From an uncultured Planctomycetales bacterium (GTDB lineage: Bacteria; Omnitrophota; Gorgyraeia; Zapsychrales; GWA2-47-8): DNA of 63,063 nt. The position numbers and the translations under genes were made by a program. The notes beneath the pieces are model-generated. The model saw nothing but the letters and a program-made list of their open reading frames with translations, did not search any database and had not been told where the DNA came from. Positions within the stretch are counted from its first letter, which is position 1. The number at the start of each line of letters is the position of its first letter. Positions 32,929 through 48,746 of this stretch are shown one piece after another. The stretch is taken from positions 33,454 to 96,516 of the forward strand of contig CAYING010000001.1 of NCBI GenBank assembly GCA_964364715.1, read 5' to 3'.

Positions 32929-33393
32929 ATGCGTACTAATGGAAATAAAAGCGGGATGGTGGACATCAGCGCCAAGGATGTGACCAAACGCACGGCACGA
33001 GCGAGTGCTGTGATCCGTTTTTCCAAAAGCGCTTTTACCGCGCTGATCAAGGACAAATCTCCCAAGGGAAATGTTCTCGAAACCGCAAAAGTGGCTGGCA
33101 TTATGGCCGCGAAAAATACCCCGCAGATCATTCCGTTGTGCCATCCTCTGGAATTGAGCAAGGTGAAGGTTGATTTTGAATTGAATGCCCGCAAAAGTGA
33201 AGTGAGTGTATTCAGTGAAGTCGTCTGCTTGGGCAGAACAGGTGTTGAAATGGAAGCTCTTGCCGCGGTAACTGTTGCGGCCCTGACCGTGTACGATATG
33301 ATGAAATGGGCGGACAAAGGGATCCGTATTCTGGATGTGAAGTTGCTGTCCAAAACCGGCGGCAAAAGCGGCGACTTTCACGCAGGAAACTAA
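32929..33393 (+). CDS. moaC: Cyclic pyranopterin monophosphate synthase
   Basis: GMVDISAK, TAKVAGIMAAK-T-QIIPLCHPL and GVEMEAL motifs. Confidence 0.92.
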   Translation: MRTNGNKSGMVDISAKDVTKRTARASAVIRFSKSAFTALIKDKSPKGNVLETAKVAGIMAAKNTPQIIPLCHPLELSKVKVDFELNARKSEVSVFSEVVCLGRTGVEMEALAAVTVAALTVYDMMKWADKGIRILDVKLLSKTGGKSGDFHAGN

Positions 33394-33449: not shown

Positions 33450-33546
33450 CATGTACTTATTTTCTCTAATAAATACAGAGGAAATAAGTACTTATCCCAA
33501 TTACATCTAAATATATTGGGAATAATTATAGAGGAAAATTGGGATG
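33450..33546 (+). repeat. 97-nt leader element ending on a start codon (copy B)
   Basis: About 94% identical to 34570-34666. Hairpin at 33453-33491. Boxes TCCCAATT (33495-33502), ATTGGGA (33515-33521), GAGGA (33531-33535), AATTGGGA (33537-33544) and ATG (33544-33546). Confidence 0.9.
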
Positions 33547-34608
33547 GTCAACATCGGAATTATCGGCTGCGGGTATTGGGGTCCTAATCTTCTTCGAAAT
33601 TTTAATTCGCTTTCCAACTGCCGGGTCAAAATGGCTGCTGAATTAGACGACTCGCGCATTCTTTACCTCAACCAAAAGTTTCCCTCAGTAAGGACTACCA
33701 AAAATTATAAAGATCTGTTTGCCAATGAGATAGACGCGGTTGTGATCGCGACCCCGCCGACCACGCATTATGCGATGGCCAAAGAGGCTTTGACCCACAA
33801 GAAGCATCTTTTAGTTGAGAAACCTTTGGCGATGAACAGCGTGGACGCCCAGGAATTGATCGATCTGGCGGCCCAAAATATGTGCACGCTGATGGTCGGC
33901 CATACCTTTGAGTTCAATGCCGCGGTCCGGACAATGAAGAAATATGTTCAGAGCGGGGAAGTCGGCAAGCCGTATTATATTTATTCTCAGCGTTTAAATT
34001 TGGGGATTATCCGTCGGGATGTTAACGCCCTTTGGAATTTGGCGCCGCATGATATTTCGATCCTGCTGTATCTTTTTGAAAAAATGCCGGTCAGCGTTTC
34101 GGCGCGCGGATACGCGTTTATCCAGCCGGGGATCGAAGATCTTATCTTCATGACCTTACAATTTCCCGATGACCTGGTCGCGCATGTGCACGTGAGCTGG
34201 CTCGACCCGAACAAGGTCCGGCGGATGACGCTCGTGGGCAGCAAGAAGATGGTGGTCTATGATGATACTTCCGATGCCAAGATCAAGATTTATGAAAAGG
34301 GTATTACCAAAGCAAATATCAATGAATCTTTGGGGCGTTACGATGATTTCGGCGAATTCCAGCTGATGAAATCCGCCGGTAACGTGGTCTTCCCGAAGAT
34401 CGATTTTATCGAGCCGTTAGGTGTCGAGTGCGCCAATTTTATCGATGCCATTACCAATCAAACAAAACCTTTGACCGACGGCGAGAACGGCCTGCGGGTC
34501 GTCAGAATTCTCGAAGCAGCGCAGAAATCGTTAGAGAATAGCGGTCAAACTATTGAATTAGCGGAGTCTCATGTACTTATTTTCCCTAATGAAATACAGA
34601 GGGAATAA
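33544..34608 (+). CDS. Gfo/Idh/MocA family NAD(P)-dependent sugar oxidoreductase (WbpB-like)
   Basis: Rossmann motif IGIIGCGYWG, plus VEKPLA and the family-typical length. Confidence 0.85.
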   Translation: MVNIGIIGCGYWGPNLLRNFNSLSNCRVKMAAELDDSRILYLNQKFPSVRTTKNYKDLFANEIDAVVIATPPTTHYAMAKEALTHKKHLLVEKPLAMNSVDAQELIDLAAQNMCTLMVGHTFEFNAAVRTMKKYVQSGEVGKPYYIYSQRLNLGIIRRDVNALWNLAPHDISILLYLFEKMPVSVSARGYAFIQPGIEDLIFMTLQFPDDLVAHVHVSWLDPNKVRRMTLVGSKKMVVYDDTSDAKIKIYEKGITKANINESLGRYDDFGEFQLMKSAGNVVFPKIDFIEPLGVECANFIDAITNQTKPLTDGENGLRVVRILEAAQKSLENSGQTIELAESHVLIFPNEIQRE

Positions 34609-34666
34609 GTACTTATCCCAATTACATCTAACATATTGGGAATAATTGTAGAGGGAAATTGGGATG
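34570..34666 (+). repeat. 97-nt leader element ending on a start codon (copy C)
   Basis: Same boxes as copy B. Its first 39 nt encode the last 12 codons and the stop of the upstream CDS. Confidence 0.9.
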
Positions 34667-35611
34667 TATCGCGGTAAAAAGATCTCGCTGGTCATTCCTG
34701 CCTATAACGAATCCAAATTGATCAAGCCGACGCTGGAGCATGTTCCGGCAAGCATCGACAAGGTGTATGTGGTCGATGATGCCAGCACCGACAATATGGC
34801 GGAGGTGGTGCGCGAATGTGCGGTCAAGGATCCGCGTGTTGAATTGATTCGGCACACCGTCAATCAGGGGCCCGGGCAGGGGATCATCAGCGGATATTTA
34901 AAGTCGTCGGCGGACGGATATGACATTGCGGTCGTTGTCGGCGGAGATTATCAGATGCCGCTGGAAGAAGTGGAAAATTTCCTGGATCCGATCATCGACG
35001 GTAAAGCGGATTACACGAAGGGCAATCGCTTTCTCCTATGGAAAACGACCAAAGAGCGAATGCCGCCGGTGCGTGTTTTTGGAAATCTTTTAATCACGGC
35101 TTTGACTAAAATCGCATCGGGTTATTACAAAGTTATGGATGTTGTTGACGGCTATACCGCGATCACCAAGAAGGCGATCGATATCATCGACTGGAACATC
35201 GCCTGGAAAAAATACGGCTACCCGATGGATTTTTTGATCCGCTTGAACGCCTATGGATTCAGGGTAAAAGATGTTCCGCGCACCGCGATCTATTTGAAAG
35301 GGGAGCGGCAGTCGCAGATCAAGGGAATGCGCTATGCCCTGCGCGTTTCGCCGATGCTGATCCGCGGATTTTTCTGGCGGATGTTCTACAAATATCTGTA
35401 CCTCGATTTTCACCCGCTGGTATTTTTCTTTCTTTGCGGAATGGTGCTTTTGCCGCTGGGGATCTTGTTCGGTTTTTATCTCATTTATCAGGAAGTGGCT
35501 GGCATCGGGGTTTCCGGCCCGCGGGCGATCCTCTGCGCCTTGTCGATCATCACCGGACTGCAGTTTTTGTTATTCGGGATGTGGTTCGATATGGAAGCGA
35601 CGGAAAAATAA
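34664..35611 (+). CDS. GT2 polyprenyl-phosphate glycosyltransferase (GtrB/ArnC/DPM1-like) with C-terminal TM helices
   Basis: VIPAYNE and VVDDASTD motifs and two C-terminal TM segments. Confidence 0.8.
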   Translation: MYRGKKISLVIPAYNESKLIKPTLEHVPASIDKVYVVDDASTDNMAEVVRECAVKDPRVELIRHTVNQGPGQGIISGYLKSSADGYDIAVVVGGDYQMPLEEVENFLDPIIDGKADYTKGNRFLLWKTTKERMPPVRVFGNLLITALTKIASGYYKVMDVVDGYTAITKKAIDIIDWNIAWKKYGYPMDFLIRLNAYGFRVKDVPRTAIYLKGERQSQIKGMRYALRVSPMLIRGFFWRMFYKYLYLDFHPLVFFFLCGMVLLPLGILFGFYLIYQEVAGIGVSGPRAILCALSIITGLQFLLFGMWFDMEATEK

Positions 35612-35612
35612 T

Positions 35613-36761
35613 ATGGAAACGACTTTAGAGAAGACGGACAAGATCTGTTCACGGTGTGTGATGGATTCGACTGATTCCGGACTTCGTTTGGATGCTGAAG
35701 GTGTTTGCCAATATTGCCGGATACATGAAAAATTAGCGGAAACTTTCCCGCTGAACGCCGAAGGTGAAAGAAAATTGCAGCAGCTTGCCGATGCGATCAA
35801 GCAAAGCGGACGCGGCAAAAATTATGATGTGATCGTGGGGGTGAGCGGCGGGCGCGACAGCACGTACGGATTATATATCGCAGTGAAATTGGGTTTAAGG
35901 CCGCTAGCGGTCCACTTTGATAATGGATGGAATTCCGAGATCGCGGTCACTAATATCAAGCGCGCCACGAGCAAACTTAATATTGATCTGCATACCTATG
36001 TGGTCGATTGGGATGAGTTCAAAGATCTGCAGCTTTCTTTTCTCAAGGCTTCGGTGTCGGACGCTGAAATCCCGACGGATGTCGGCATTCACGGCACACT
36101 GCACCGCGTGGCCGCGGAAGAGGGAATTAAATATATTTTATTTGCGCATTCGTTCCGCACCGAAGGTTTTGCCCCGCTTAACTGGACCTACATGGACGGC
36201 CGTTACGTTGAGAGCGTGCACAAACAGTTCGGGGCAAAGCCGCTCAAAACATTTCCGAATTTGAATTTGAAAAATTATTTGTATTATCGTTTTGTTAAAG
36301 GGATCAAGGTCGTCCCGCTTCTCGCCTATGTCGAATATGATCAGAAAAAGGTCGAGAAACTGCTGGAGCAGGAAATTGGCTGGACGTATTACGGCGGGCA
36401 TCATCATGAATCGTATTACACGCATTTTTTCCAATCCTATTATCTGCCGCAGAAGTTCAATATCGATAAGCGCAAGATCGAGAATTCGGCGCTGATCCGT
36501 TCCGGCCAGATGACGCGCGAGCAGGCGTTGAGCGAGATCCAAGGGGAGACGTACCCGTACGACCCTGAGTTGGTCGATTATACCTTAAGTAAATTGGGGC
36601 TGACCAAAGACCAATTCCAGAAAATCATGGCATCGCCCAATAAATCATTCAAAGATTATCCAACCTATTATTCTTTGCTGAAAGTTTTTAAGTTACCGAT
36701 CCGTCTGGCCTGCGCTTTGGGAATCTTCCCAAAACATTTATATCTGCGCTACTTCGGTTAA
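35613..36761 (+). CDS. N-acetyl sugar amidotransferase (WbpG/PseA-type, PP-loop)
   Basis: N-terminal Cys cluster CSRCV...CQYC and the PP-loop VGVSGGRDS. Confidence 0.8.
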   Translation: METTLEKTDKICSRCVMDSTDSGLRLDAEGVCQYCRIHEKLAETFPLNAEGERKLQQLADAIKQSGRGKNYDVIVGVSGGRDSTYGLYIAVKLGLRPLAVHFDNGWNSEIAVTNIKRATSKLNIDLHTYVVDWDEFKDLQLSFLKASVSDAEIPTDVGIHGTLHRVAAEEGIKYILFAHSFRTEGFAPLNWTYMDGRYVESVHKQFGAKPLKTFPNLNLKNYLYYRFVKGIKVVPLLAYVEYDQKKVEKLLEQEIGWTYYGGHHHESYYTHFFQSYYLPQKFNIDKRKIENSALIRSGQMTREQALSEIQGETYPYDPELVDYTLSKLGLTKDQFQKIMASPNKSFKDYPTYYSLLKVFKLPIRLACALGIFPKHLYLRYFG

Positions 36762-36762
36762 T

Positions 36763-37530
36763 ATGCTCAAGACAAGAGTTTTCCCCTGTTTACTGCTTAA
36801 AGGAACGGGCTTGGTTAAAACCGTTCAGTTCAAAAATCCTACCTATGTCGGAGACCCGATCAACGCGGTCAGAATTTTTAATACGAAAGAAGTCGATGAA
36901 CTCGTTCTTTTGGACATCACGGCCACGGAAGAAAACCGTTCTCCGCAATTCGATCTGATCGCAAAAATTTCTGATGAATGCCGGATGCCTTTAAGCGTCG
37001 GCGGGGGAGTGCGCTCGATGGACGATATCCGCCGGCTTTTAAACGGCGGCGCGGAAAAGGTTGTTTTGAATACTCATGCCATCCGCGATCCTAATTTGGT
37101 TGAGCAAGCAGCCAGTGAAATGGGAAGCCAGTCCATCATTGTGTCCATCGATGCGAAACGGAACCCCAAAGGACATTACGAAGTTTTTATCGAGGGCGGA
37201 AAAAGACCGTCTGGTCACGATCCGGTCGAACTGGCCAAGCTGATGGAAGAAAAAGGCGCGGGCGAAATTTTTCTTAATTCGATCGACCGGGATGGAACGA
37301 TGAGCGGCTATGATGTCGAATTGATCCGTCAGGTTTCCGAGGCGGTCAATATTCCGGTCATCGCCTGCGGCGGAGCGGGAAAACTGGAAGATTTCAAGGC
37401 AGCGGTCCAGGAAGGCGGGGCCTCGGCGGTCGCGGCCGGAAGCTTTTTTGTTTTTCACGGCCGCCGGCGGGCGGTCCTCATCAATTTCCCGGCGAAAGAT
37501 GAATTGGATCGGCTATTTATTTATGAATAA
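36763..37530 (+). CDS. HisF-like cyclase subunit (HisF2/AglZ type, acetamidino-sugar biosynthesis)
   Basis: RVFPCLLLKG..LVKT..F, VDELVLLDI and ACGGAG motifs. Adjacent to the WbpG-like gene. Confidence 0.8.
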   Translation: MLKTRVFPCLLLKGTGLVKTVQFKNPTYVGDPINAVRIFNTKEVDELVLLDITATEENRSPQFDLIAKISDECRMPLSVGGGVRSMDDIRRLLNGGAEKVVLNTHAIRDPNLVEQAASEMGSQSIIVSIDAKRNPKGHYEVFIEGGKRPSGHDPVELAKLMEEKGAGEIFLNSIDRDGTMSGYDVELIRQVSEAVNIPVIACGGAGKLEDFKAAVQEGGASAVAAGSFFVFHGRRRAVLINFPAKDELDRLFIYE

Positions 37531-38272
37531 CATGGGTAATTCATCATTCTGGCATAAACTCATTCGATCCGTTATGGTGCGTGGTGATGTCCAGAACATA
37601 GAAAGCGTTGCGTGTAAGAAGGTTGTTGCGGATGCCATTCAATTGGAAAATAGCAAAAAACAATTTAGGTTTATAACCAAGTATTATGATCAAAATATAT
37701 ATCAAATATTTTCTAGAATAAATCAGCAATCTAACATCAAAACAGTATTAGATGTCGGAACAGCTATGGGAGATGTTATTTCCACGGTTGCGGCACAGAA
37801 CCCCCGGGTCAATTTTTTTGCCATTGATATTATGGATGAGGCCATTGAGATTGCTCAAAGGAATTATTGCGGGATCACAAATGTAAAATTTAAGAAGGCC
37901 AACTTTTTGGGTGATTCTGTTATGTCTTGTGCGGATGTTGTTGTTTGTCTTCAAACTTTAGAGCATATAGAGGACCATACTTTGATTCCTTTTATTGAAA
38001 AGTTATTCAAGACAGCCCGTTGTGCTGTTGTGGTAAGTGTACCGCGTGAGCCGTATTGGTGTTTTGCGAATTTATTGAGGCTGAAATATTGGTCTAGATT
38101 GGGAAATACGCCGCATCACGTGCAGCATTGGAGGATGCAAAGTTTTGAAAAGGTTTGCCGCAATATCGCCTCGCAAGTGTGGACTTCAAAATATGAAGTG
38201 GTTAAAAAAAGTCCTCTGCATCTATGGACAATTTTAGTATTTATGAAGGAAGATGTTTGCCATGCAAAATAG
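37523..38272 (+). CDS. Class I SAM-dependent methyltransferase
   Basis: VLDVGTAMGD motif I. The start is uncertain (37499, 37523 or 37532). Confidence 0.7.
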   Translation: MNNMGNSSFWHKLIRSVMVRGDVQNIESVACKKVVADAIQLENSKKQFRFITKYYDQNIYQIFSRINQQSNIKTVLDVGTAMGDVISTVAAQNPRVNFFAIDIMDEAIEIAQRNYCGITNVKFKKANFLGDSVMSCADVVVCLQTLEHIEDHTLIPFIEKLFKTARCAVVVSVPREPYWCFANLLRLKYWSRLGNTPHHVQHWRMQSFEKVCRNIASQVWTSKYEVVKKSPLHLWTILVFMKEDVCHAK

Positions 38273-39218
38273 TCTTTGGGTGAGAATCATTGGGGCAATT
38301 CTTTCAGCTGTTTCAATTGTTTTTGTCGCGAAGGTTATGGGGGGAGCAGCTATGCGGGGCCAGTATTCGCTTGTTTCTTGGAGTGAAATTCGGGTTTTAT
38401 TATTGTTTTTTCCGGTAAGCTGCGGAATGGCTTTTTTGATGGTTTATCCATGGAAGTGGGTGTTGGAATTTGTTCTGAAAAGGCGTATTCGATTGAAAGA
38501 AATCTTTGCGGTCTATGCGGGATCCAATGTCGCGAAATATTGGCCAGGAGGGTTTTGGCAATACCTGATGCGGAATTTCCTGGGACGTAATTTAAATATG
38601 ACGCAGTGGCAAATTGGCACGAGCAGTTTACTGGAAATTTTGTGTGTTGTTATCGGTACGGGTACCATAGTTTTTTTTATTGCTGCCGCGCGATGGAGTT
38701 ATTCCCGCAAGTTAGAATATGCGCCGGTTGAGCTGCAACGGATTTTTGACTATTCAGGAATTTTTATTTTGATTGCGCTTTTATGTGTGATTCTCATAAA
38801 GTTTTGGTTAAGCAGGAGCCTAAGGACGCAGAACGTAAAGTTTGATTATTGGGAAATGGGGGGGCTATTTTTGAAGGTTACAGTGGCCCATTTTATATAT
38901 TTTGTTCTCGCCAGCGTGAGCTTTGCATTCTTCTTGAGAGAATTCACTGTTGATGCGATTGGAATGCTTGATGCGTGGGTTGTCGGTGAAGTATTTATTT
39001 TGGCCTTTTTTGCAGGGTTTGTTGTGCCTGGAGCACCTTCGGGGTTGGGCATTCGTGAAGTATTTTTGTTATTTGCTCTGTCGCCTCACTACGGAACGGG
39101 GCCGGTCCTGCTGGCAGCCTTCTGTCATCGTTTCTTGCTTATTCTGGGGGATGTTGGAATTTGGATTTTGAGCCGGTTTAATTTATCACTATCAAATTAT
39201 GTATCTTCCAAAATATAA
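38253..39218 (+). CDS. Flippase-like membrane protein (LPG_synthase_TM/UPF0104 family)
   Basis: Polytopic, with the VPGAPSGLGIREV signature near the C-terminus. Confidence 0.65.
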   Translation: MFAMQNSLWVRIIGAILSAVSIVFVAKVMGGAAMRGQYSLVSWSEIRVLLLFFPVSCGMAFLMVYPWKWVLEFVLKRRIRLKEIFAVYAGSNVAKYWPGGFWQYLMRNFLGRNLNMTQWQIGTSSLLEILCVVIGTGTIVFFIAAARWSYSRKLEYAPVELQRIFDYSGIFILIALLCVILIKFWLSRSLRTQNVKFDYWEMGGLFLKVTVAHFIYFVLASVSFAFFLREFTVDAIGMLDAWVVGEVFILAFFAGFVVPGAPSGLGIREVFLLFALSPHYGTGPVLLAAFCHRFLLILGDVGIWILSRFNLSLSNYVSSKI

Positions 39219-41370: not shown

Positions 41371-42019
41371 GAGCATTTTTAACCGGAACATTTTTATCTA
41401 CCTTGCCGTCGCGGCTGTCCTGTTTTTGATCGTGGATAAACAGCGTTACCGGAGTAAGATGATCAATTATCTGACGGTTCCGGTCGGGTATCTGTATTTA
41501 GTGGGGGAAGGCGCGCAGAAAGCTGAGCCGCAAAGAATTTTAGATTATGTGGAATTTTATGAACGTCTCATCGAACATGCGCCGAACGCCCCGGACGCGC
41601 TTGGGATGCTGGGTGTTTCGCATTATTATTTAGGAGATACAAAAAAAGCGGCCGAACTTCTTGAGAAAGCGGCGGCGGCCAATCCGCATTATTTTTGGTT
41701 TCAGTACAATTCGGGTGTGATCTATGCTGAAGAAGGGCAAAGAGAAAAAGCGGCCGAGGCCTTTCAAAAAGCGCTGCGGATAAAACCGCAATTAGCGCTT
41801 TATTTTATCCAAACATCGCGTATCTTAAGATATGTGGAAGACCAGGAATATATTCGGGCTTCTTTGCGGATGCCGTCGCTGAACGTAGATGGGAAGATTG
41901 AAGAAAATTTGAAGGCCGGGTACCAGGCTGCCGCCAGACTCACCATTCTTTTGCAGCAGCAAAAAGCTGATAGGAATATTAAATTGCCGCAGGAACTGCT
42001 GCGGGTCAGGGTTTTTTAA
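41363..42019 (+). CDS. Membrane-anchored TPR-repeat protein
   Basis: TM anchor and 3-4 TPR-like repeats (AxxxxxKAxxxxP pattern). Confidence 0.7.
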   Translation: MIKSIFNRNIFIYLAVAAVLFLIVDKQRYRSKMINYLTVPVGYLYLVGEGAQKAEPQRILDYVEFYERLIEHAPNAPDALGMLGVSHYYLGDTKKAAELLEKAAAANPHYFWFQYNSGVIYAEEGQREKAAEAFQKALRIKPQLALYFIQTSRILRYVEDQEYIRASLRMPSLNVDGKIEENLKAGYQAAARLTILLQQQKADRNIKLPQELLRVRVF

Positions 42020-45000
42020 TGAGCAAGAAAAGTTTACAGCGGGCTGTTTTAGTCTGCGCCGCGGTTTTTGGGCTGGCCGCGGCTTACGGGAATTTTTGCC
42101 GTCAGGCGAAGTACCTGCATTATGAGGTTTTTGATTTTAATCAGACGGTCTCTTGGCAGAAAAAGGACGGGAATATTTTCCGCACCGCGTCGAGGGGTAA
42201 CTTCGATATGTTCCTGCTTGCGAAAGATGATTTTCGGAAAGTATCGCTTAAGCTGAATATCATCAACCCGCGTGACTGCGGGATCCTGTTTAATTATCTT
42301 GGCAAAGATTATTACTATGTGCTGTATTTTGACACGGTCCATCAGGCGGTGTTGTGGCTGCGGATAACGCCGGAGGGAACATCCGTTATTCAGCGGGGAA
42401 TTCTGCCGCCGGTCGCTGTTCTGCCGGTCGAACTGGATCTTTGGAAAGGCGGGGCGAAGTTTTCCATCAAAGGACAAACTCATTCGCAGGTCACGTTCAA
42501 TGATGTTGTGAAGGGGAGCCTGCTTCTGGGCGGGTTGATGATCAAAGATGCCCAGGCTCCCAAGGTCATTTTTAATGATGTTCGCCTCGAGGGGACGACC
42601 AGTGAGGGAACGAGTGTCCAGGGATCTGATTCCATTTCGAATATTCCCCAGGGGCGGTATATTGCAGCGTTGTTGATTTTATGCGCGATGATGACCGCGT
42701 CCGCCTTTATGCTGGCGAGGGTCCTTTCGCGGCTGCAGGAGAAGGATCCCCAAAATAACGAATTCAAATTGTCGGGCTTGCAGGCCGGGCTGATCCACTC
42801 AGCCGCAGCCGCGTTACTATTCCTGCCGTTTATTTTTAAAGGTGAAATTCTTATCTCAAGCGCGGATAACCTCGGACAGATCTTCCCGTTGTTCTTTTTT
42901 TCGAAGCAGAATTTCTTGCAGATCTTCGGCGGGGGAGAGCCGATCCTCTGGAATCCGTATTCGCACAACGGGATCCCGTTCTTTTCCAATCATTGGAATA
43001 TGACCTATTATCCGCTGAATTGGCCTATATTTCTGTTGCCGGATTCATGGGTGATGAGCGCTTTGACTTTGCGCACAATGGTCGAAGTTTTTCTGATCGG
43101 CCTTTTCGGGTATCGTTTGTTCCTGGCGGAATTCGGTTCGGCAAAATGGGCGATGGCCAGTTCGCTTTCGTATCAGTTGGGGTCTTTTTTAATTTTTAGC
43201 TTCACCCTGTTCCCGGTCACGTCATTATTTTTTGCCATGACGTTTTATCTGTACACGCTCTGGACGCTCCCGCAGAGAAAAGATTGGCTGAACGCGGCGA
43301 TGCTGGTGAGCGCGGTTGTTTTGATTTTGCCCGGCGGGAATATGGCGTTTGTGTTTTACGGCGGGCTCACCGTGGCGGTCGCGACGATGTATCGGTGGGC
43401 GAGTGATGGGGAAACACGTAAAAGAGGAATCGTGCTTTTCGGAAGTTTGGTGTCGGCATTTTTGATCAGCGCGGTCCGGATCATTCCGTGCCTATTCGGC
43501 GTCAGTGAAAGTAACCGCGTGGTGGAACATTTTTATACCCTGCATGACCGGGCCGCGATGTTCGTTCGGTTCTTTGTCCCGGAGATCGTCGGCTGGCTGG
43601 GGCCAAATTTTTTTAACGCGCTGACCTCGCCGAATTGGAATTTTATCTATGAGCAGGCGGATCTGCCGTCGAATTCGCAGAACACTTTCTTCGCGTATTT
43701 CGGGATTGTCCCGGGCTTGCTGATCTTGAGCAGTATCCTCATTCCCGTGAAAGGGAAGCTTAAGTTTTGGAAAATCTATTGCTGGGCCGCGATCGCGTTA
43801 GGGTTGATGATCCAACCGTTGTGGGGCATGTTCAATATTTTGACGTTTCCGTTCAATCATTACAGTTATTATATTATCATCCTGCCGCTGGGCGTATGCA
43901 TGCTCGCGGGGTTGACGGGAAAATATTGGGAAGAACAGAGCGTTGATTGGCAGAAATATCGTGAGCGGATCGGCGGCCTTGCCCTGGCGGTGCAGATCTT
44001 GATCGTGGTGATGGTGACGTATCTTTTTCCGCACAATGCACTGTGGGGGAAATTGGCTATCGTGCTTTTGGCGGGATGGTGGCTGGTGCTGCGTTACCTA
44101 AATTTTGTAAATAAGGATAAATATCTTTCGTTCAGCCGGGCCGGATTGCTGGGTCTTTTGTGGATATGGTTTTTCTTTGCTGCGACAGTGCTGGCGATCA
44201 AGCCGATCGTTAATAAAGAATTCATAATGCCTGCGGCGATCCTGCCCATGATCGCGCTTTTTTTAATCGCGGCGTTGGGGAGCGAAATATTCCTGAGAAA
44301 AGGGATGAGATTTGCAGTCCTTTTCCCGGGGGCTGTTTCCGCGGCGGTGTTGGTAATTACAGCGACCCCTTTGCTGGAATTTTTCCTTCAGCTTGAAAAC
44401 GGTGCGCGGAATTATTTTCTCGATATGTCGTTTGCTGAAATAAAATTCTTGGCGCTTTTGCTTTTGTTTTTTGCGGTGCGGGGATTCTTCCGGAGGGGGA
44501 AGATCTCGCCGAGAACGTGCGGAGGGCTATTAATTTTAGTCATCCTTTTTGATCTTTTGGCGTTCAATTACCGTTTTGATAATGTCGTGGCGCCGTCGCC
44601 GTTGGGACAGGCCTTTTATGTCCGCGAGTATTTGTATCGCCCTTTTGAGCCGCGCGTTCATCAGATATTTGATTTAAAGAATTTTCGTATGACTAATCTG
44701 CATAATGCGGGACTGAAAGATAATGAGAATTTGGCTTTAAAAATTCCCAGCTATTCCGGGATCATGGGGCATATGCCGAAACGGTTCTCGAATTTTATCG
44801 TGAACTTCGGCTATCCGGCGCGGACGGTTTTGATCTACCCGTCTGAGTCAACGGACAATGCGCGGTTCTTGGACCTCGGCGCGGTGAAATATATCGGCGG
44901 TTCTGAAGAAGTAAGAGAAACAGCGCTGTCGCGGATGATGTTTTATTCTGATTTTGCGGTTGTTCCGGACGATACGGAAACTTTAAGGACGTTGAAAGAT

Positions 45001-45381
45001 CCGAATTTTATTCCGCAGGAAAAAGTTCTTTTGAGCCGGCAGCCGGAGGGTGTTGTGCCTTTTGTCGGGACCAAAGGAATGCCGGCCGCGATCACGGCAG
45101 TCACGGCTAACAAAATTACTGCGGAGGTGACCGCAATTCAGCCGGGGGTTTTGTTGTTTGCGGAAAGTTTTGATAAAGGCTGGCGGGCCACCGTGGACGG
45201 CAGACGTGTTGAAGTTATTCCGGCGAATTATGCCTTTATGGCGATCCCGGTTGAAAAAGGGGAGCATGCCGTGGTTTTCCGGTATGCGCCGTCGCTGTAT
45301 GTTTTTTCTTTGATTTTAAGCGGGATCGGATTATTTTTATTCGGTATTTTTATGATTTATCTTTTAAGAAAGAAAGCATAA
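42019..45381 (+). CDS. Giant YfhO-like GT-C-type membrane protein with N-terminal beta-sandwich (LamG/DUF1080-like) domain
   Basis: 1120 aa. C-terminal signature FDKGWRATVDGRRVEVIPANYAFMAIPVEKGEHAVVFRY. The roughly 200-aa N-terminal soluble domain follows a signal anchor. Confidence 0.7.
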   Translation: MSKKSLQRAVLVCAAVFGLAAAYGNFCRQAKYLHYEVFDFNQTVSWQKKDGNIFRTASRGNFDMFLLAKDDFRKVSLKLNIINPRDCGILFNYLGKDYYYVLYFDTVHQAVLWLRITPEGTSVIQRGILPPVAVLPVELDLWKGGAKFSIKGQTHSQVTFNDVVKGSLLLGGLMIKDAQAPKVIFNDVRLEGTTSEGTSVQGSDSISNIPQGRYIAALLILCAMMTASAFMLARVLSRLQEKDPQNNEFKLSGLQAGLIHSAAAALLFLPFIFKGEILISSADNLGQIFPLFFFSKQNFLQIFGGGEPILWNPYSHNGIPFFSNHWNMTYYPLNWPIFLLPDSWVMSALTLRTMVEVFLIGLFGYRLFLAEFGSAKWAMASSLSYQLGSFLIFSFTLFPVTSLFFAMTFYLYTLWTLPQRKDWLNAAMLVSAVVLILPGGNMAFVFYGGLTVAVATMYRWASDGETRKRGIVLFGSLVSAFLISAVRIIPCLFGVSESNRVVEHFYTLHDRAAMFVRFFVPEIVGWLGPNFFNALTSPNWNFIYEQADLPSNSQNTFFAYFGIVPGLLILSSILIPVKGKLKFWKIYCWAAIALGLMIQPLWGMFNILTFPFNHYSYYIIILPLGVCMLAGLTGKYWEEQSVDWQKYRERIGGLALAVQILIVVMVTYLFPHNALWGKLAIVLLAGWWLVLRYLNFVNKDKYLSFSRAGLLGLLWIWFFFAATVLAIKPIVNKEFIMPAAILPMIALFLIAALGSEIFLRKGMRFAVLFPGAVSAAVLVITATPLLEFFLQLENGARNYFLDMSFAEIKFLALLLLFFAVRGFFRRGKISPRTCGGLLILVILFDLLAFNYRFDNVVAPSPLGQAFYVREYLYRPFEPRVHQIFDLKNFRMTNLHNAGLKDNENLALKIPSYSGIMGHMPKRFSNFIVNFGYPARTVLIYPSESTDNARFLDLGAVKYIGGSEEVRETALSRMMFYSDFAVVPDDTETLRTLKDPNFIPQEKVLLSRQPEGVVPFVGTKGMPAAITAVTANKITAEVTAIQPGVLLFAESFDKGWRATVDGRRVEVIPANYAFMAIPVEKGEHAVVFRYAPSLYVFSLILSGIGLFLFGIFMIYLLRKKA

Positions 45382-46094
45382 TGAAAAAATATCTGGTCGG
45401 CAGCTGCGCCTTCAACGAAGGCGAAAAGGTCAGGCGGGTCATTCAAAAGTACAATGACTACGGCCGGTACGATGTTTTGATCATTGACGACGGGTCGACG
45501 GACGGTTCGTTGAACTCGATTCCGAAAGGCATTCCGGCGGCCGTGATCCGCAATGAGACAACGCAGGGGGCGGGCCATTGCATCCGTCAGATCTTCGACT
45601 GTGCGCTTAATAAAGGATACGAAGCGGTTCTTTTCGCTTCCGGTAATGACAAGGACGATCCGAAAGATATTGCGAAACTCATTCAGGCCATTGAACAGGG
45701 CGGTGACTTTGTCCAGGGTTCAAGATATTTAAAAGGCGGCGGGCACGGGCGGATGCCGTTGTATCGGAAAATTTCCACGCGGTTCATTCATCCGTTTTTG
45801 TTTTCGCTCATTGCCGGGCGGCAGATCACCGACAGTACCAACGGTTTCCGCGCGGTGCGGCTGTCACTTCTGAAGGATCCGCGGATCGATATTCAGCAGG
45901 AGTGGCTGGATAAATATGAGCTGGAACCGTATATGTTTTATAAAGCGATCAAGCTCGGCTACAATGTGATCGAGGTGCCGGTGACAAAGATTTATCCCTC
46001 GAAAGCGCAAGGCTATACTAAAATGAAATCCTTCAGCGGCTGGTGGAGCATCCTGCGGCCGCTCGTATATCTCGGATTGGGGATCAAAAAGTAA
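45381..46094 (+). CDS. GT2 glycosyltransferase (second GtrB/DPM1-like)
   Basis: IIDDGSTDGS motif, an SGNDKDD acidic motif and GFRAV. Confidence 0.75.
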   Translation: MKKYLVGSCAFNEGEKVRRVIQKYNDYGRYDVLIIDDGSTDGSLNSIPKGIPAAVIRNETTQGAGHCIRQIFDCALNKGYEAVLFASGNDKDDPKDIAKLIQAIEQGGDFVQGSRYLKGGGHGRMPLYRKISTRFIHPFLFSLIAGRQITDSTNGFRAVRLSLLKDPRIDIQQEWLDKYELEPYMFYKAIKLGYNVIEVPVTKIYPSKAQGYTKMKSFSGWWSILRPLVYLGLGIKK

Positions 46095-47696
46095 ATGTCG
46101 GCTGACCAAAATAAACTTTTACGGACCGTGGCGACGGCATTCGCCGCCTTTATTTTTGCGCTGGGGTTTTACTGGCGTATTGTTGATATCCAGCGTGCAA
46201 ATTTTTTCTTGTTCGATGAAGGTTATTATTTGAATTTTAACCGCAAGTTTGTTGAGCTGGCCGCGTATTTTTCCCCGAAGAATTTCGCTGAATTCATCCA
46301 GGCATTCTGGACGCTGATCCGGGTCTCGCTGGGGACCGGGAAGGCGTTGTGGTTTTTTATCGTGGACGGACGGGTGTTCTTAGGGCTGGCCCACGCCTGG
46401 TATTTTCCAAAAATAATTTCGATGCTGGCCGGGTTCGGAACGATCGCGATGACGTATCTGTTTGCCCGGCGGTATTTTGATTCGAAGGAGATCGCGCTTC
46501 TCAGTGCCGCGCTTCTGAGCATACTGCCGAGCCATGTTTTCTATTCCCGATTAGGCATTCAGGAAGCCTTGAGCGGATTGTTTTTTCTGTCCGGGTTTTA
46601 CTTGTATATTTTTCCGCGATCGTTCGGCCGGCGGACGTTTGTTTCAGCTGTTCTTTTCGTCGGCGCGTATTTTACAAATTACCGTCTGATCTTTATTCCG
46701 GGAATGGTTTTTTTGACGGAATTCTTTTTGTCTTGGGCTGAAAAGAGAAAGTTTGATCTGCGAAAAATTGTTTGGCACACGCTTACCTTTGCCGGCCTTT
46801 TGCTCTTGCTCGCGTGTCTGGACCGGGCGCAGAACATGGCCGTGACTTTTACCTGGATGTCGCATCAGGCGGGCCTGGCGAAAGAAAAGGCGGACCTGCT
46901 TAATTTTCTTTCGTACCCCTATTATTTATTTAAATTGGAAAGTTTTTCGTTCGGTCTGGTGTTCTGGGCCGGCGCGTATCTTGTTTTTAAAAAAGAATGG
47001 CAGAAAAGTTTTCCGTTTTTGTTCGTCTTGCTCCTGATGGGGATATTTTCGCTGACCGAAGACAAGGCGGCGCGGTATCTGTGTGTTGGGTTGCCCTTCG
47101 TTGTGATGGCGGTCGCGGTATTCTGGGCGGAAATTTACCGAAAGTGCGCGGACCATGTTTCGGGCAAAATCATCGGGCTCGCGACTGTGATCCTCGCGTT
47201 GAGCTTGTGCCCCAACGCCTTGATGATCGCAACGGCCAGATCCGATTATGAGCGTTCGGTTCAGGATGTCTTGGCTGAGCAAAAGGACGCCAAATTTCTT
47301 TCTACCCAGCCGTGGGTGCAGCGGCTGTTCGTCCCGCAGGCATCTTCCGTTGCTGAGGCCCCGCATACTTTTGAACAGTTGGTCGATTTTCACCAAAAAG
47401 GGTTTAACTATTTGGTGATCGATCCGCAGTCATATATTTCATACGCACAAAGTAAAAATAAATTTGATCCGAACTTGGAAAATTATTTGGGGTTTGTGAA
47501 CGCCGCCCTTGTGCCGGCGAAGATCTATCCGCATTTCAATGAAGTGATCTTGGAGCGGTTCGTTTTCGAGCACAATGAGAACCTGCGTCGGTCGCTGGCC
47601 TTTTTGAAGGAGCGCAACCGCGGGATCGGGACGCTGAGAGTTTACGATGTGAAGCAATGTATCGATATAGTGATCAAGGAATTATCCGTGGAATGA
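46095..47696 (+). CDS. GT-C fold glycosyltransferase, family 39-like (PMT_2/ArnT-like)
   Basis: The first-loop FDEGYY motif follows TM1. Polytopic, with a soluble C-terminal domain. Confidence 0.65.
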   Translation: MSADQNKLLRTVATAFAAFIFALGFYWRIVDIQRANFFLFDEGYYLNFNRKFVELAAYFSPKNFAEFIQAFWTLIRVSLGTGKALWFFIVDGRVFLGLAHAWYFPKIISMLAGFGTIAMTYLFARRYFDSKEIALLSAALLSILPSHVFYSRLGIQEALSGLFFLSGFYLYIFPRSFGRRTFVSAVLFVGAYFTNYRLIFIPGMVFLTEFFLSWAEKRKFDLRKIVWHTLTFAGLLLLLACLDRAQNMAVTFTWMSHQAGLAKEKADLLNFLSYPYYLFKLESFSFGLVFWAGAYLVFKKEWQKSFPFLFVLLLMGIFSLTEDKAARYLCVGLPFVVMAVAVFWAEIYRKCADHVSGKIIGLATVILALSLCPNALMIATARSDYERSVQDVLAEQKDAKFLSTQPWVQRLFVPQASSVAEAPHTFEQLVDFHQKGFNYLVIDPQSYISYAQSKNKFDPNLENYLGFVNAALVPAKIYPHFNEVILERFVFEHNENLRRSLAFLKERNRGIGTLRVYDVKQCIDIVIKELSVE

Positions 47697-48724
47697 CGGT
47701 CAAGACACTTTCTTATAATGAAGCTTCATCCAGAATTAAACTTCTGCATCTGGACCGCAATCTTTTTTCTTCCCCTTCTTGGGTCTCCGTTTTGCAGAAA
47801 ACGTACAATATTACGATCTTTGTTAAATACATCGAGCGTAATGGAGCGGTAGACAGTTACATTCTTTATTCCGTTGTGAAAAATTTTTTGGAATGGAAGA
47901 TTTGCGTCCTTTCGTATTGCGATTACTGCGACTGCCCGGTTAAAAGCAAAGAGGATTGGAAATTATTCTTTGCGGACCTGCGCCGGGAATACCCGATGTC
48001 CCGGATCGCGGTTCGGAACCTGCGTGATGAAACGGCGCTCGCGTGCGGATGTTTTCAGGTCTTGAGCCGGGAGCGGTTTCATCTTTTGGACGTGAGGGAG
48101 CCGGTTGAGGCGGTCTGGAAAAAAACGCATGAATCTTTCCGGTCAGCGGTCAAACAGAGTCAGAAGGCGGGGGCGGTTGTGAGGCGCTGCGATAAGGCCG
48201 GCCTTAAAAAATTTTTTGACCTTCACTTAAGTTTGCGCAAAAATAAGTACCGATTGTTCCCGCAGCCTTACCGGTTTTTTGACAACATCTGGCAGGAGTA
48301 TATGGAGAAAGACCGGGGCGTTTTGCTCGGCGCTTTTGACAGCCGGGGAAATTTTATCGGTGGAAATGTTTATCTGATCTGCGGGGATACGTTATACTAC
48401 AAATTCAATACGTCCAGCGTAACTTCACTGAAATTGAGGCCCAATAACCGGCTTTTCTGGGAAGGAATTAAGTTTGCTAAAGAGCGGGATCTCGGGTATA
48501 TTGATCTTGGTTCCAGCGGAATAGAACAGCACGGCCTTATCGCGTTTAAGAATCATACCGGCGCGGCAATGATGGACATCACGCATTTGGGTTATGCGCC
48601 GCCCGGATATAAGTTCAGCCAGAAGCGCATCTTAAGGGTTATGACAAGCTTTTTTACGCAGGATTGGGTGCCGCCTGGAATGGTACGCTTCGGGAGTAAT
48701 ATCATTTATCCGTATTTAGCGTAG
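47693..48724 (+). CDS. FemAB/BioF2-like GNAT-fold acyl- or aminoacyl-transferase
   Basis: About 340 aa. Its pattern resembles the FemAB-related proteins found in exopolysaccharide loci. ATGA overlap with the upstream stop. Confidence 0.55.
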   Translation: MTVKTLSYNEASSRIKLLHLDRNLFSSPSWVSVLQKTYNITIFVKYIERNGAVDSYILYSVVKNFLEWKICVLSYCDYCDCPVKSKEDWKLFFADLRREYPMSRIAVRNLRDETALACGCFQVLSRERFHLLDVREPVEAVWKKTHESFRSAVKQSQKAGAVVRRCDKAGLKKFFDLHLSLRKNKYRLFPQPYRFFDNIWQEYMEKDRGVLLGAFDSRGNFIGGNVYLICGDTLYYKFNTSSVTSLKLRPNNRLFWEGIKFAKERDLGYIDLGSSGIEQHGLIAFKNHTGAAMMDITHLGYAPPGYKFSQKRILRVMTSFFTQDWVPPGMVRFGSNIIYPYLA

Positions 48725-48746
48725 AGGATGTATAAACTGAACTGAT

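Follow-up and report, generated by a model that had tools for sequence, protein, structure and literature searches.

A layered gene block predicted to mediate periplasmic glycosylation, with several GT-C families, in an uncultivated Omnitrophota bacterium

Adjacent GT-C genes are known from mycobacteria, where aftA, embC, embA and embB lie next to each other, and the pairing of a GT2 enzyme with a PMT enzyme is known from the actinobacterial Ppm1/Pmt system. The bacterial YfhO and PMT_2 enzymes characterised so far add single side-chain sugars, and the Pfam families PMT and PMT_2 also include lipid A transferases of the ArnT type and glycosyltransferases that act on teichoic acids or polysaccharides (PMC8035078). 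CBMs present on GT-C enzymes bind the polysaccharide acceptor in characterised systems (PMC11127046, PMC8035078). The UPF0104 / LPG_synthase_TM family is annotated as the predicted flippase AglD2/YbhN (PMC12713373), while the transport shown or proposed for UPF0104 proteins concerns solely glycerophospholipid derivatives and never polyprenyl-phosphate sugars.

The logic of loading, flipping and transferring a sugar is already known, and the gene cluster described here, from an uncultivated Omnitrophota bacterium, has an enzyme set and a layout that are specific to this phylum. What is new is the mix of GT-C families and accessory proteins. The original prediction had regarded three GT-C enzymes in one operon as undescribed, which is too strong a claim given the adjacent mycobacterial aftA-embC-embA-embB genes.

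Gene packing and conservation of gene order

We analysed a stretch of 63,063 nucleotides (the window), in which all 13 co-directional ORFs of the block could be located between 33544 and 49961 (Table 1). The tight packing predicted for them is seen in the junctions from g1 to g13, which measure +55, +1, +1, +1, -20, +1, -8, -1, -1, 0, -4 and +22 nt, the ORF start 38253 being used for g6 in this series and 38262 being the database's own call. Junctions of at most 2 nt make up 10 of the 12 in the block and 12 of the 40 between same-strand genes in the rest of the window (Fisher p = 0.002), with a slight bias toward tight junctions from three start codons which were picked by us. The starts of g5 (37532), g6 (38262), g7 (39220) and g12 (47693) are backed by homologues. 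Co-directionality of the block is uninformative because the plus strand carries 53 of the window's 55 genes, and short intergenic gaps are common across the whole genome and window, so that tight packing is partly a genome-wide trait. The genes of the block are probably co-transcribed and translationally coupled, and such coupling probably links g8 to both g7 and g9.

Table 1. Features of the block and its left-hand neighbour, in window coordinates
Feature	Coordinates	Strand	Assignment	Basis
moaC	32929..33393	+	conserved left-hand chromosomal anchor	Pfam MoaC
g1	33544..34608	+	GFO/IDH/MocA NAD-dependent sugar oxidoreductase, UDP-GlcNAc 3-dehydrogenase-like	Pfam, NCBIfam
g2	34664..35611	+	membrane-anchored GT2, GtrB/CsbB/ArnC-type polyprenyl-phosphate glycosyltransferase candidate	Pfam GT2
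g3	35613..36761	+	WbuX-type N-acetyl sugar amidotransferase (PP-loop ATPase)	TIGR03573
g4	36763..37530	+	AglZ/HisF2 (WbuZ) acetamidino-modification protein	NF038364, TIGR03572
g5	37532..38272	+	class I SAM-dependent methyltransferase, in swapped low-GC cassette	several Methyltransf Pfam matches
g6	38262..39218	+	8-9 TM protein, UPF0104 / LPG_synthase_TM (MprF flippase-domain, 'PplT') superfamily	homologues' PF03706 matches
g5 + g6	37509..39251	+	replaced cassette, low-GC	blastn vs L007
g7	39220..41370	+	YfhO-type GT-C glycosyltransferase	Pfam YfhO, AlphaFold, Foldseek
g8	41363..42019	+	single-pass membrane-anchored TPR protein	TPR Pfam matches, N-terminal TM helix
g9	42019..45381	+	1120-aa GT-C	Pfam YfhO, structure model, Foldseek
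g10	45381..46094	+	soluble DPM1-like GT2, candidate polyprenyl-phosphate hexose synthase	Pfam GT2
g11	46095..47696	+	PMT-clan (GT39/GT83-like) GT-C	homologues' PMT matches, DE pair
g12	47693..48724	+	cytoplasmic FemAB-like / Acetyltransf_6 (GNAT-pair) transferase	PF13480
g13	48747..49961	+	404-aa protein, N-terminal hydrophobic segment	ORF

Gene order is conserved in relatives (loci L007, L009, L090, L091 and L092). In the distant species represented by L090, whose g9 is 40% identical, 11 of the 13 genes are collinear at 40-79% identity. The YfhO-TPR-(x)-g9 string is kept in L007, L009, L091 and L092, and a TPR gene lies directly 3' of the g7 orthologue in all five loci. In L007, L090 and L092 the position of g6, directly 5' of the YfhO gene, is taken by canonical PF03706 genes, and in L091 such a gene is located three genes further upstream. 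The L009 locus encodes up to five polytopic proteins, and more polytopic families adjoin g9 orthologues.

The GT2, GT-C and FemAB-like genes are found as a group in 33-37 loci of Omnitrophota: g10 orthologues (61-89% identical) are immediately upstream of g11 in 33 loci and g12 orthologues (52-87% identical) immediately 3' of it in 37, and relatives of g11 are present in 79 Omnitrophota species genomes. In 43 of 84 loci the g11 orthologue has moaC upstream of it, and in L005 and L008 moaC is the gene that immediately precedes the g9 orthologue. Instead of the one island originally proposed, the locus is a conserved chromosomal core with variable modules, and other species have it at this same site by moaC. 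The block is layered, consisting of a widespread GT2/PMT-like/FemAB-like trio by moaC, a recurrent string of UPF0104, YfhO, TPR and CBM-bearing YfhO genes, and a variable sugar-precursor module that takes in the low-GC cassette replaced in the closest relative.

The last gene, g13, is probably peripheral and outside the conserved system. It matches no Pfam or NCBIfam family, the closest relative, L007, is the only one with an orthologue (66-67% identity), and the core has no g13 beside it in L005, L008, L009, L090 and L092. Since it is restricted in this way and is not Ser/Thr-rich (S+T content of 11.9%), the proposal that this secreted protein might be the substrate is weakly supported.

Family and fold assignments

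Nearly all of the family calls made originally from the sequence were reproduced by Pfam and NCBIfam profile searches. For g1, described as WbpB-like, the call holds at the family level (Pfam GFO_IDH_MocA, 86 bits; generic family members as PDB matches) and not for anything narrower, the NCBIfam UDP-GlcNAc 3-dehydrogenase model scoring 179 bits, under its cut-off of 450; in L090 an orthologue with 66% identity is in the same position. The amidotransferase g3 exceeds the WbuX cut-off (TIGR03573, 275.7 against 203.2 bits) and is 93% identical in L007 and 71% in L090, and g4 exceeds the cut-offs of both of its models (NF038364, 366.6 against 310 bits; TIGR03572, 314 against 299.7 bits). No HisH-type glutaminase, the partner of WbuX/HisF2, was found among the scanned window ORFs of at least 150 aa, and this cluster lacks two genes of its L090 counterpart, for a DegT aminotransferase and a hexapeptide acetyltransferase. 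With respect to these three proteins, the route to the precursor seems to be incomplete in this genome.

Species differ greatly in the upstream sugar module, which is hypervariable. DNA homology to L007 in blastn ends at 37508 and restarts at 39252, and in the same interval (3.4 kb) L007 carries an MBOAT gene, a gene whose product has 350 aa, and a UPF0104 gene unrelated to g6; g5 has no counterpart in L007. The GC content of g5 is 0.38 and its GC3 0.37, as compared to about 0.49 and about 0.58 in the neighbouring genes, and that of g6 is 0.43. The methylation cassette has been traded for an MBOAT-type acylation cassette in L007, which is the pattern of surface-polysaccharide loci.

Homology supports g2 and g10 as putative polyprenyl-phosphate sugar synthases, as had been predicted for the two GT2 proteins. 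g2 (Pfam GT2, 73 bits) has two to three hydrophobic (TM) helices at its C-terminus, matches ArnC structures (E = 6.5e-5), scores with AglJ (91 bits) and PpgS (56 bits) under the cut-offs of those models, and has a 79% identical orthologue in L090. g10 (Pfam GT2, 50 bits) scores 54 bits with the dolichyl-phosphate hexose transferase model and 63 bits with AglJ, both under their own cut-offs, and matches the archaeal dolichol-P-mannose synthase (PDB 5mlz) with E = 2.1e-11. g12 passes the PF13480 cut-off (46.7 against 22 bits), scores 43 bits with TIGR03019, under that model's cut-off, and matches FemX (PDB 6snr, E = 5e-5).

g6, which contains the motif PGAPSGLGIRE, has no Pfam match itself, and its place in UPF0104 comes from its relatives (2066 in the representative library), 17 of 34 sampled ones matching PF03706 (LPG_synthase_TM / UPF0104). 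The family named in the original prediction is thereby supported, while the role of g6 as a predicted lipid-linked-sugar flippase is a prediction that covers the whole UPF0104 family.

The proposal that the large membrane proteins are GT-C enzymes is supported by fold matches of the models for g7 and g9 and by homologues of g11. g7 (716-723 aa) has about 13 TM helices, a C-terminal beta-sandwich in the periplasm and one last TM helix, and its AlphaFold model (pLDDT 88, pTM 0.90) has only GT-C proteins (STT3, AglB, ArnT, PglB, Emb, AftD, AftA) as its best 27 Foldseek PDB matches, with modest E-values of 1e-3 to 7e-2; the beta-sandwich aligns to AftD. In g9 (pLDDT 71, pTM 0.73), TM1 is followed by a periplasmic jelly-roll (residues ~35-205), TM2, a YfhO-like polytopic core, a C-terminal beta-sandwich and a last TM helix. 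The lectin-like nature predicted for the jelly-roll was recovered, with matches to CBM66 (E = 1.6e-4, TMt 0.64) and to galectin jelly rolls. The top Foldseek matches of g9 are EmbC/EmbB/EmbA (E = 6.6e-7 to 1.7e-5), with which it shares a jelly-roll between TM1 and TM2 and a C-terminal sugar-binding-like domain, a likeness at fold level only (TM-score about 0.2). TM-scores of the g7 and g9 matches are low (0.2-0.35). Both proteins pass the Pfam YfhO cut-off of 28.5 bits (g7, 31.7; g9, 50) through their C-terminal parts, the matches spanning only the final ~80 model positions, and the TM cores of the two proteins can hardly be aligned (hhalign probability 24%). At least 14 full-length homologues of g9 are among the matches listed, and the three with a source name are from Omnitrophota.

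g11 (533 aa, with a C-terminal periplasmic domain of ~150 aa) scores 19.9 bits with Pfam PMT, under the cut-off of 22.7, while 22 of 38 homologues match PMT and nine match PMT_2 (best E about 1e-9). Its homologues number at least 196, several named GT39 by NCBI; the family profile found no solved GT-C by sequence, and no MIR domain was detected in g11. Conserved acidic residues of the first periplasmic loop accompany these assignments, as the D41-E42 pair after TM1 of g11 and D283 within the polytopic core of g9 are invariant among homologues.

Proposed pathway and alternative readings

We consider it probable that the block encodes a multi-component transmembrane (periplasmic) glycosylation system of three layers that acts on an envelope glycan. 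In the cytoplasm, g1-g5 would tailor a nucleotide-activated N-acetyl amino sugar by GFO/IDH/MocA oxidation, by WbuX and HisF2 conversion of the acetamido to an acetamidino group and by methylation, and g2 would load it onto polyprenyl phosphate. The lipid-linked sugar might then be brought to the periplasmic leaflet by g6 and passed to the acceptor by the GT-C enzymes g7 and g9, together with g8. In the phylum-wide layer by moaC, g10 may form a polyprenyl-phosphate hexose which g11 would transfer outside the membrane, and g12 may add an acyl or aminoacyl group or prepare it. We take the acceptor to be most likely an envelope glycan (linked to LPS or a different surface polysaccharide) and not a protein, because both YfhO-type enzymes carry beta-sandwich modules, CBMs on characterised GT-C enzymes bind polysaccharides, the sugar module is hypervariable and the methylation/MBOAT cassette is exchanged. 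Family searches of the block genes found no Wzx, Wzy or initiating phosphoglycosyltransferase, which fits decoration or extracytoplasmic extension and not classical repeat-unit synthesis.

The Emb-like layout of g9, the several GT-C genes per locus (with still more polytopic genes in L009 and near g9 orthologues) and the lack of Wzx/Wzy/ABC polymer export and initiating transferase genes in the block would also suit a relay modelled on Corynebacteriales, where Emb, Aft and Mpt build arabinan and mannan. Three GT-Cs, supplied with polyprenyl-phosphate monosaccharides by g2 and g10, would then act in sequence to build or elongate a periplasmic surface glycan. However, this is unlikely, as the similarity to Emb stays at the level of the fold, characterised bacterial YfhO and PMT_2 enzymes attach single sugars as side chains (PMC8035078), genes for a primer lipid or for polymer export were not identified, and two GT2 donors for three GT-Cs fit decoration equally well. 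Modification of a membrane-lipid head group, with g6 and g12 acting as a split MprF (flippase plus aminoacyl transferase) or in the manner of GpgSDF/HexSDF, would make and flip a glycerolipid or lipid A species bearing a sugar or an aminoacyl group in place of a polyprenyl-linked donor for a polymer. This reading draws on UPF0104 being the flippase domain of MprF and, in the GlcN-PG operon gpgSDF, the predicted flippase, on the match of g12 to FemX-type aminoacyl transferases and on the lipid A modifier ArnT in the PMT clan. We regard it as quite improbable, since g12 accompanies g10 and g11 in many loci having no UPF0104 gene nearby while g6-type genes accompany g7, and since a simple change of lipid head group would not be expected to involve three GT-Cs that bear CBM-like domains along with an amino-sugar module that is hypervariable.

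Protein O-glycosylation, with g10 as a Ppm1-like polyprenyl-phosphate mannose synthase, g11 as a Pmt-like protein O-mannosyltransferase and TMTC-like recruitment by TPR of g13 or other secreted proteins, appears improbable. g11 belongs to the PMT clan and carries the DE motif, the match of g10 to dolichol-P-mannose synthase gives a pairing that mirrors Ppm1/Pmt, and TPR domains bind proteins. However, the PMT families are broad in function (PMC8035078), g11 is without a detected MIR domain, g13 is neither conserved together with the core nor Ser/Thr-rich, and the CBM-like modules favour glycan acceptors. The analogy with TMTC suggested earlier is weak too, because the TPR protein is here a separate polypeptide coupled to YfhO-type genes and not to g11. 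Fortuitous juxtaposition of unrelated envelope genes sharing no pathway in a compact, strand-biased genome would agree with the plus-strand excess and the short gaps throughout the window, and with adjacency to moaC, as conserved neighbours may differ in function. It is very improbable and already disfavoured by synteny, as collinearity extends to 11 of 13 genes in a species so distant in g9, sub-strings recur in at least five genomes, and the block is functionally coherent in combining sugar tailoring, GT2, a flippase-like protein and GT-C.

Organization of the cluster and its conservation among relatives

As originally predicted, thirteen consecutive co-directional ORFs (g1 to g13) are present in the cluster, and the starts of four of them (g5, g6, g7 and g12) were refined by a combination of homologue alignments and the database gene call. 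The junctions from g1 to g13, for which the ORF start at 38253 was taken for g6, are in order +55, +1, +1, +1, -20, +1, -8, -1, -1, 0, -4 and +22 nt. Start/stop overlaps or gaps of 2 nt or less, anticipated at most junctions, are found at 10 of the 12, as compared to 12 of the 40 same-strand junctions in the rest of the window (Fisher p = 0.002). The tight packing of the cluster is therefore real and above background; short intergenic gaps are common in this genome. Since the + strand carries 53 of the 55 genes in the window, the co-directionality of the cluster is uninformative; this distribution of the genes and a GC skew which is positive across the whole window place the window inside a single replichore of a genome with strong strand bias. 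The only minus-strand genes are a DegT-like gene (313 aa, weak partial match) and a methyltransferase gene, a pair which four of the relatives' loci (L005, L008, L090 and L092) also have downstream of the core. A scan returned 37 promoter-like sites (24 expected) and 39 terminator-like sites (28 expected), none of them tellingly placed. Inside the coding region of g7 there is a strong GC-rich hairpin, whose 11-bp stem contains 9 G-C pairs, and a T-rich tract comes directly after it.

Gene order was compared in 92 loci. All homologues with an informative taxon name come from Candidatus Omnitrophota MAGs, and a number of the genome records bear the name 'uncultured Planctomycetales bacterium'. 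The closest locus, L007 (g9 74% identical), reads g3-g4-[MBOAT, 350 aa, UPF0104]-g7-g8-g9-g10-g11-g12-g13. L090, with g9 40% and g7 48% identical, reads moaC-g1-[DegT]-g2-g3-g4-[UPF0104]-g7-TPR-[hexapeptide acetyltransferase]-g9-g10-g11-g12, with 11 of the 13 genes collinear with the window at the same chromosomal site. In L091 and L092 the string UPF0104 ... YfhO-TPR-(x)-g9 is kept, with or without GT2, next to quite different upstream sugar genes (Asn synthase-like, radical SAM, GT1 and nucleotidyltransferase). L009 carries GT2-YfhO-TPR-538 aa-g9-711 aa-GT2-PMT-FemAB-like, and g9-g10-g11-g12 come immediately after moaC in L005 and L008. Gene order is thus conserved in L007, L009, L090, L091 and L092, and the condition under which the original prediction would have regarded the juxtaposition as fortuitous, a gene order shared with no relative, clearly does not apply.

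A survey anchored on g11, covering 79 species genomes and the loci fetched earlier, found g11 in 84 loci, with moaC just upstream of it or of its GT2 partner in 43, g12 in 37, g10 in 33, g9 in 13 and g7 in 11. Comparison of all these loci reveals that the block is layered: a widespread trio, g10-g11-g12, resides by moaC, a recurrent string consists of UPF0104-YfhO-TPR-g9, and the precursor module is hypervariable. The neighbourhood of moaC and g11 is strikingly conserved (about half of the loci), with no obvious functional link.

Insertion of g1-g8 between moaC and g9, considered in view of L005 and L008, was rejected because in L090, a distant species, the complete arrangement occupies this site; gain and loss in certain lineages are hence equally likely. 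The g9 orthologue of L090 is called as two ORFs (784 and 369 aa), which reflects a gene that is truly split or else a frameshift or an error of assembly. Directly upstream of the g9 orthologues in L009 and L010 lies a family of polytopic proteins of ~510-540 aa (43% mutual identity) without a Pfam match, and L091 has a 507-aa ORF at the same position.

Coordinates of the features discussed (window positions, or positions within the relative's locus where one is named)
Feature	Position	Strand	Remark
LpoB-like lipoprotein gene	4501-5106
NHL-repeat beta-propeller gene	6559-8616		685 aa
Polytopic protein gene	12253-13848		531 aa
AsmA-like gene	14340-15371
Deacetylase and PMT-family genes	24276-26670
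PMT-family GT-C gene	24832-26670
moaC	32929-33393	+
Cluster g1-g13	33544-49961	+
Replaced cassette g5 + g6	37509-39251	+	between hisF2 and the YfhO gene; clean swap against L007 1160-4560
g5, refined start	37532	+
g6, refined start	38262	+
g7, refined start	39220	+
Hairpin and T-rich tract in g7	40542-40571
g12, refined start	47693	+
g13	48747-49961	+
DegT-like and methyltransferase genes	51476-53127	-
Cassette site, L007	1160-4560
Polytopic family member, L009	8336-9952
Polytopic family member, L010	8459-9982
Split g9 orthologue, L090	13735-17218

The large membrane proteins g7, g9 and g11

Sequence searches of g7, g9, g11 and the g11 family profile against the PDB found no GT-C enzyme, and therefore evidence at the level of the fold and of the homologues was needed. 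For the g7 model (24 homologues; pLDDT 88, pTM 0.90), the top 27 Foldseek PDB matches are all GT-C (yeast and human STT3, AglB, PglB, ArnT, EmbA/B/C, AftD and AftA), with E-values from 1.4e-3 upward and TM-scores of about 0.3; its C-terminal beta-sandwich aligns locally to AftD. The top matches of the g9 model (14 homologues; pLDDT 71, pTM 0.73) are EmbC, EmbB and EmbA (E = 6.6e-7 to 1.7e-5; TM-score about 0.2), and the overall layout of the modelled protein resembles that of the Emb proteins. The domain between TM1 and TM2 of g9 (residues ~35-205) matches jelly rolls of the CBM66, galectin and DUF1080 types (E about 1e-4, target TM-score about 0.6), so that its earlier description as lectin-like was right. 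A word-indexed search listed 15 relatives with the g9 architecture, 14 of them full-length and one a fragment.

Both g7 (31.7 bits) and g9 (50.0 bits) score above the gathering cut-off (28.5) of the YfhO family (PF09586), which is also matched by 19 of 25 g7 homologues; the matches of the two proteins span model positions 757-835 only, the C-terminal ~80. Their TM cores align weakly to each other (hhalign probability 24%, E = 8e-4), with a shared W[DN]P...G.P loop motif aligned, and neither core gave any hhalign match to g11. Both are probably very divergent YfhO-like enzymes. D283 of g9, in the first periplasmic loop of the GT-C core, is invariant, and positions 43, 54 and 72 of g7 are acidic (D/E) at ≥80%.

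The PMT (PF02366) score of g11, 19.9 bits, lies under the gathering cut-off of 22.7. Among 38 members of its family, 22 match PMT and 9 match PMT_2 (best E about 1e-9), supporting a predicted membership at the level of the PMT clan; at least 196 homologues were found, and several NCBI records are annotated as GT39. Residues D41-E42, directly after TM1, are invariant in 38 sequences and correspond to the loop-1 motif of the PMT clan. The MIR domain, a hallmark of eukaryotic PMTs, was not detected by Pfam in g11, and its C-terminal ~150 residues match no known family. The fold matches of g7 and g9, and for g11 the PMT matches of its homologues and the invariant D41-E42, agree with the original prediction that the large membrane proteins are GT-C enzymes.

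Elsewhere in the window, a gene for a polysaccharide deacetylase precedes one for a bona fide GT-C of the PMT family (PMT 73.5 bits, PMT_2 42 bits). The latter lies 7 kb upstream of the cluster and brings the GT-C enzymes of the genome to at least four. The order of these two genes and a following GGDEF gene is kept in L008, while the edge of the L090 locus keeps PMT and GGDEF. Recent paralogy of g11 with this PMT protein was considered and rejected (hhalign probability with the g11 family only 6.8%). A further protein of 531 aa (12253-13848), originally predicted to be GT-C-like, has 11-13 hydrophobic helices, no Pfam match and no BLAST similarity to g11.

Precursor genes, the flippase candidate and accessory proteins

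The description of g1 as WbpB-like stands at the family level, since it is a GFO/IDH/MocA oxidoreductase, but not beyond it: the top NCBIfam model, UDP-GlcNAc 3-dehydrogenase (179 bits), is far under its equivalog cut-off, and the PDB relatives are generic family members. The WbuX match of g3 (275.7 bits, cut-off 203.2) and the AglZ/HisF2 match of g4 (366.6 bits, cut-off 310) both pass the curated NCBIfam thresholds, a likeness to the WbuX/WbuY/WbuZ (WbpG/HisH2/HisF2) synthesis of acetamidino groups. In contrast to that system, no WbuY/HisH2 partner (a HisH-type, GATase-family glutaminase) was found among the scanned ORFs of ≥150 aa in the 63-kb window; this subunit may be encoded elsewhere in the genome. 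L090 has a DegT aminotransferase gene in the g1-g2 interval, which in the window is no more than the 55-nt gap, and a hexapeptide acetyltransferase gene between the TPR gene and g9; both are absent from the window.

The GT2 protein g2 (Pfam) has two or three C-terminal hydrophobic helices, sub-threshold matches to the AglJ, PpgS and ArnC models and matches to ArnC structures. The second GT2 (Pfam), g10, is soluble, and its sole solved relative is the archaeal dolichol-phosphate mannose synthase 5mlz (E = 2e-11). Both are predicted to be polyprenyl-phosphate sugar synthases of the GT-A fold.

A class I SAM methyltransferase (g5) precedes the flippase candidate g6, which itself has no Pfam match even at E = 0.5. 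An exhaustive search found 2066 relatives of g6, and 17 of 34 sampled match PF03706 (LPG_synthase_TM / UPF0104; best E = 1.3e-17), the flippase domain of MprF. Through these homologues, g6 can be placed putatively in the UPF0104 / LPG_synthase_TM superfamily. Members of this family are predicted lipid flippases only, and their known or proposed cargo is derived from glycerophospholipids. No GtrA, Wzx, SMR or MATE gene is present within the block. Fusions of UPF0104 and a SAM methyltransferase exist (e.g. P0240) and fit the g5-g6 pairing.

DNA homology between the window and L007 ends at 37508 and restarts at 39252. At this site L007 carries MBOAT and a protein of 350 aa, together with a UPF0104 gene that is unrelated and shows no similarity to g6 by BLAST or single-sequence hhalign. 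The GC content of g5 (0.38) and g6 (0.43) is low as compared to about 0.49. The homology break and the low GC together indicate that g5 and g6 form a cassette which was exchanged for the MBOAT-type one.

Among the remaining proteins, g8 is a 218-aa TPR protein with one N-terminal TM helix, and g12 is Acetyltransf_6/FemAB-like with FemX as its sole solved relative (E = 5e-5); a literature search on its family, PF13480, returned nothing informative. No family match was found for g13. This adjacent secreted protein had been put forward as a candidate substrate and was rejected as unsupported: it is not conserved with the core (an orthologue was found only in L007, 66-67% identity) and, with an S+T content of 11.9%, is not Ser/Thr-rich.

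Proposed mechanism and comparison with known systems

Multi-component transmembrane glycosylation systems depend on a GT-A enzyme for the synthesis of a C55-P-sugar, on a flippase for its translocation and on a GT-C for the final transfer to O antigen or a wall polymer (PMC8035078). Large GT-C such as AftD, and possibly YfhO, have extracellular carbohydrate-binding domains for the acceptor polymer, while smaller ones have been suggested to need partner proteins (PMC8035078). In a Gram-negative O-antigen case, the C-terminal CBM of the GT-C binds polysaccharide (PMC11127046). The predicted gene content of the cluster matches such systems (PMC8035078), and on this match and the O-antigen case (PMC11127046) we propose the following mechanism. 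An N-acetyl amino sugar would be tailored by g1, g3, g4 and g5 (acetamidino, possibly methylated), loaded on polyprenyl phosphate by g2 and moved outward in its lipid-linked form by g6. The flipped sugar would be transferred by g7, with g8 and/or g9. A polyprenyl-phosphate hexose made by g10 would serve g11, and g12 may add or prepare an acyl or aminoacyl group. We favour a glycan as the acceptor on account of the CBM-like modules of the YfhO-type enzymes, the differences in precursor module from one species to another, and the interchange of methylation cassettes with acylation cassettes of the MBOAT type, which is typical of surface-polysaccharide loci.

The cluster shares with CsbB-GtcA-YfhO (GlcNAc on LTA/WTA), GtrA-GtrB-GtrV (O-antigen glucosylation) and ArnC-ArnEF-ArnT the joint encoding of a predicted polyprenyl-P-sugar GT2 with a GT-C transferase and a small, polytopic protein that is the flippase candidate, as well as YfhO-family and PMT-clan enzymes and extracellular sugar-binding modules on GT-C (PMC8035078). 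It differs from these three-component systems in its flippase candidate (UPF0104/MprF-type and not GtrA, Wzx or SMR), in having three GT-C and two GT2 in one block, in the separate TPR protein coupled to YfhO genes and the FemAB-like one coupled to the PMT-like gene, in its host, a diderm of an uncultivated phylum, and in a YfhO similarity confined to the C-terminal domain. The cluster would thus work like these systems; judging from its sequences, it is probably a member of none of them, given the different flippase-candidate family and the partial YfhO similarity.

As proposed for the cluster, the GT136 GT-C with CBM of Citrobacter youngae O1/O2 builds a periplasmic side chain from a polyprenyl-P-sugar and is accompanied by auxiliary sugar-diversifying enzymes, but its donor is a pentofuranose (PRPP-dependent synthase), its flippase belongs to the MATE family and its GT-C to another family (PMC11127046). 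The mycobacterial Emb/Aft enzymes, the top structural matches of g9, share with it the periplasmic jelly-roll between TM1 and TM2 and a C-terminal periplasmic domain, and with the cluster the presence of several GT-C genes side by side. They differ in that sequence homology is absent and the TM-score reaches no more than about 0.2; moreover, g9 is a member of the YfhO Pfam family, and DPA-pathway genes are missing from the cluster. Mycobacterial aftA-embCAB consists of adjacent GT-C genes, and three GT-C in one operon, earlier thought undescribed, are therefore not unprecedented in themselves. The analogy drawn with eukaryotic TMTC1-4, PMT-clan GT-C fused to TPR, extends to the association of GT-C with TPR repeats and fails on architecture: g8 is a separate, membrane-anchored protein coupled to YfhO-type and not PMT-type genes, and the cluster gives no indication of protein acceptors. 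Searches of the literature turned up no account of such a system in Omnitrophota; what appears to be undescribed is the recurrent gene combination in a diderm candidate phylum and the 1120-aa CBM-YfhO architecture of g9.

Several other explanations can be weighed against transfer to a glycan by the proposed mechanism. A periplasmic polymerisation relay of the Emb/Aft type, which we regard as unlikely, has in its favour the Emb-like architecture and the large number of GT-C genes. Protein O-glycosylation, to which the PMT clan of g11 and the DPMS-like GT2 (g10) might point, is quite improbable, as the position of the TPR gene, the CBM-like modules and the poor conservation of g13 argue against it. 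That the UPF0104 and FemAB-like proteins act as a split MprF in modifying membrane-lipid head groups seems very improbable, since g12 travels with g10-g11 but g6-type genes with g7. Chance juxtaposition is disfavoured by the synteny and is extremely improbable.

A more far-reaching reading, doubtful as we consider it, would see in the cluster a phylum-specific, serotype-like surface-glycan locus of Omnitrophota, with a glycan that is assembled, or extensively remodelled, on the outer side of the cytoplasmic membrane. Such a locus would be the diderm counterpart of arabinan/mannan assembly in mycobacteria, and the UPF0104 proteins would be the long-sought polyprenyl-P-sugar flippases. Interchangeable precursor cassettes would feed a conserved relay of UPF0104, YfhO-type GT-C, TPR, Emb-like CBM GT-C, DPM1-like GT2, PMT-like GT-C and FemAB-like proteins.

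The Omnitrophota comprise widespread bacteria, the majority of them uncultivated, which are often ultra-small or live in association with a host. The locus provides a concrete, conserved candidate set of envelope-glycan enzymes for the phylum, comprising the phylum-wide GT2 / PMT-like / FemAB-like trio, the rare 1120-aa GT-C with Emb-like layout and the recurrent pairing of UPF0104 with YfhO-type genes. If UPF0104 proteins do flip polyprenyl-phosphate sugars, a gap in several glycosylation pathways would be filled. The variable cassettes are suggestive of strain-level surface variation, which matters for interactions with phages or hosts. The logic established for periplasmic glycosylation is unchanged, and the locus is therefore of value for its new family members and for the hypotheses that can be tested on it, and not for a new principle. 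Elsewhere in the window, the NHL-repeat, LpoB-like and AsmA-like genes are in keeping with a diderm envelope.
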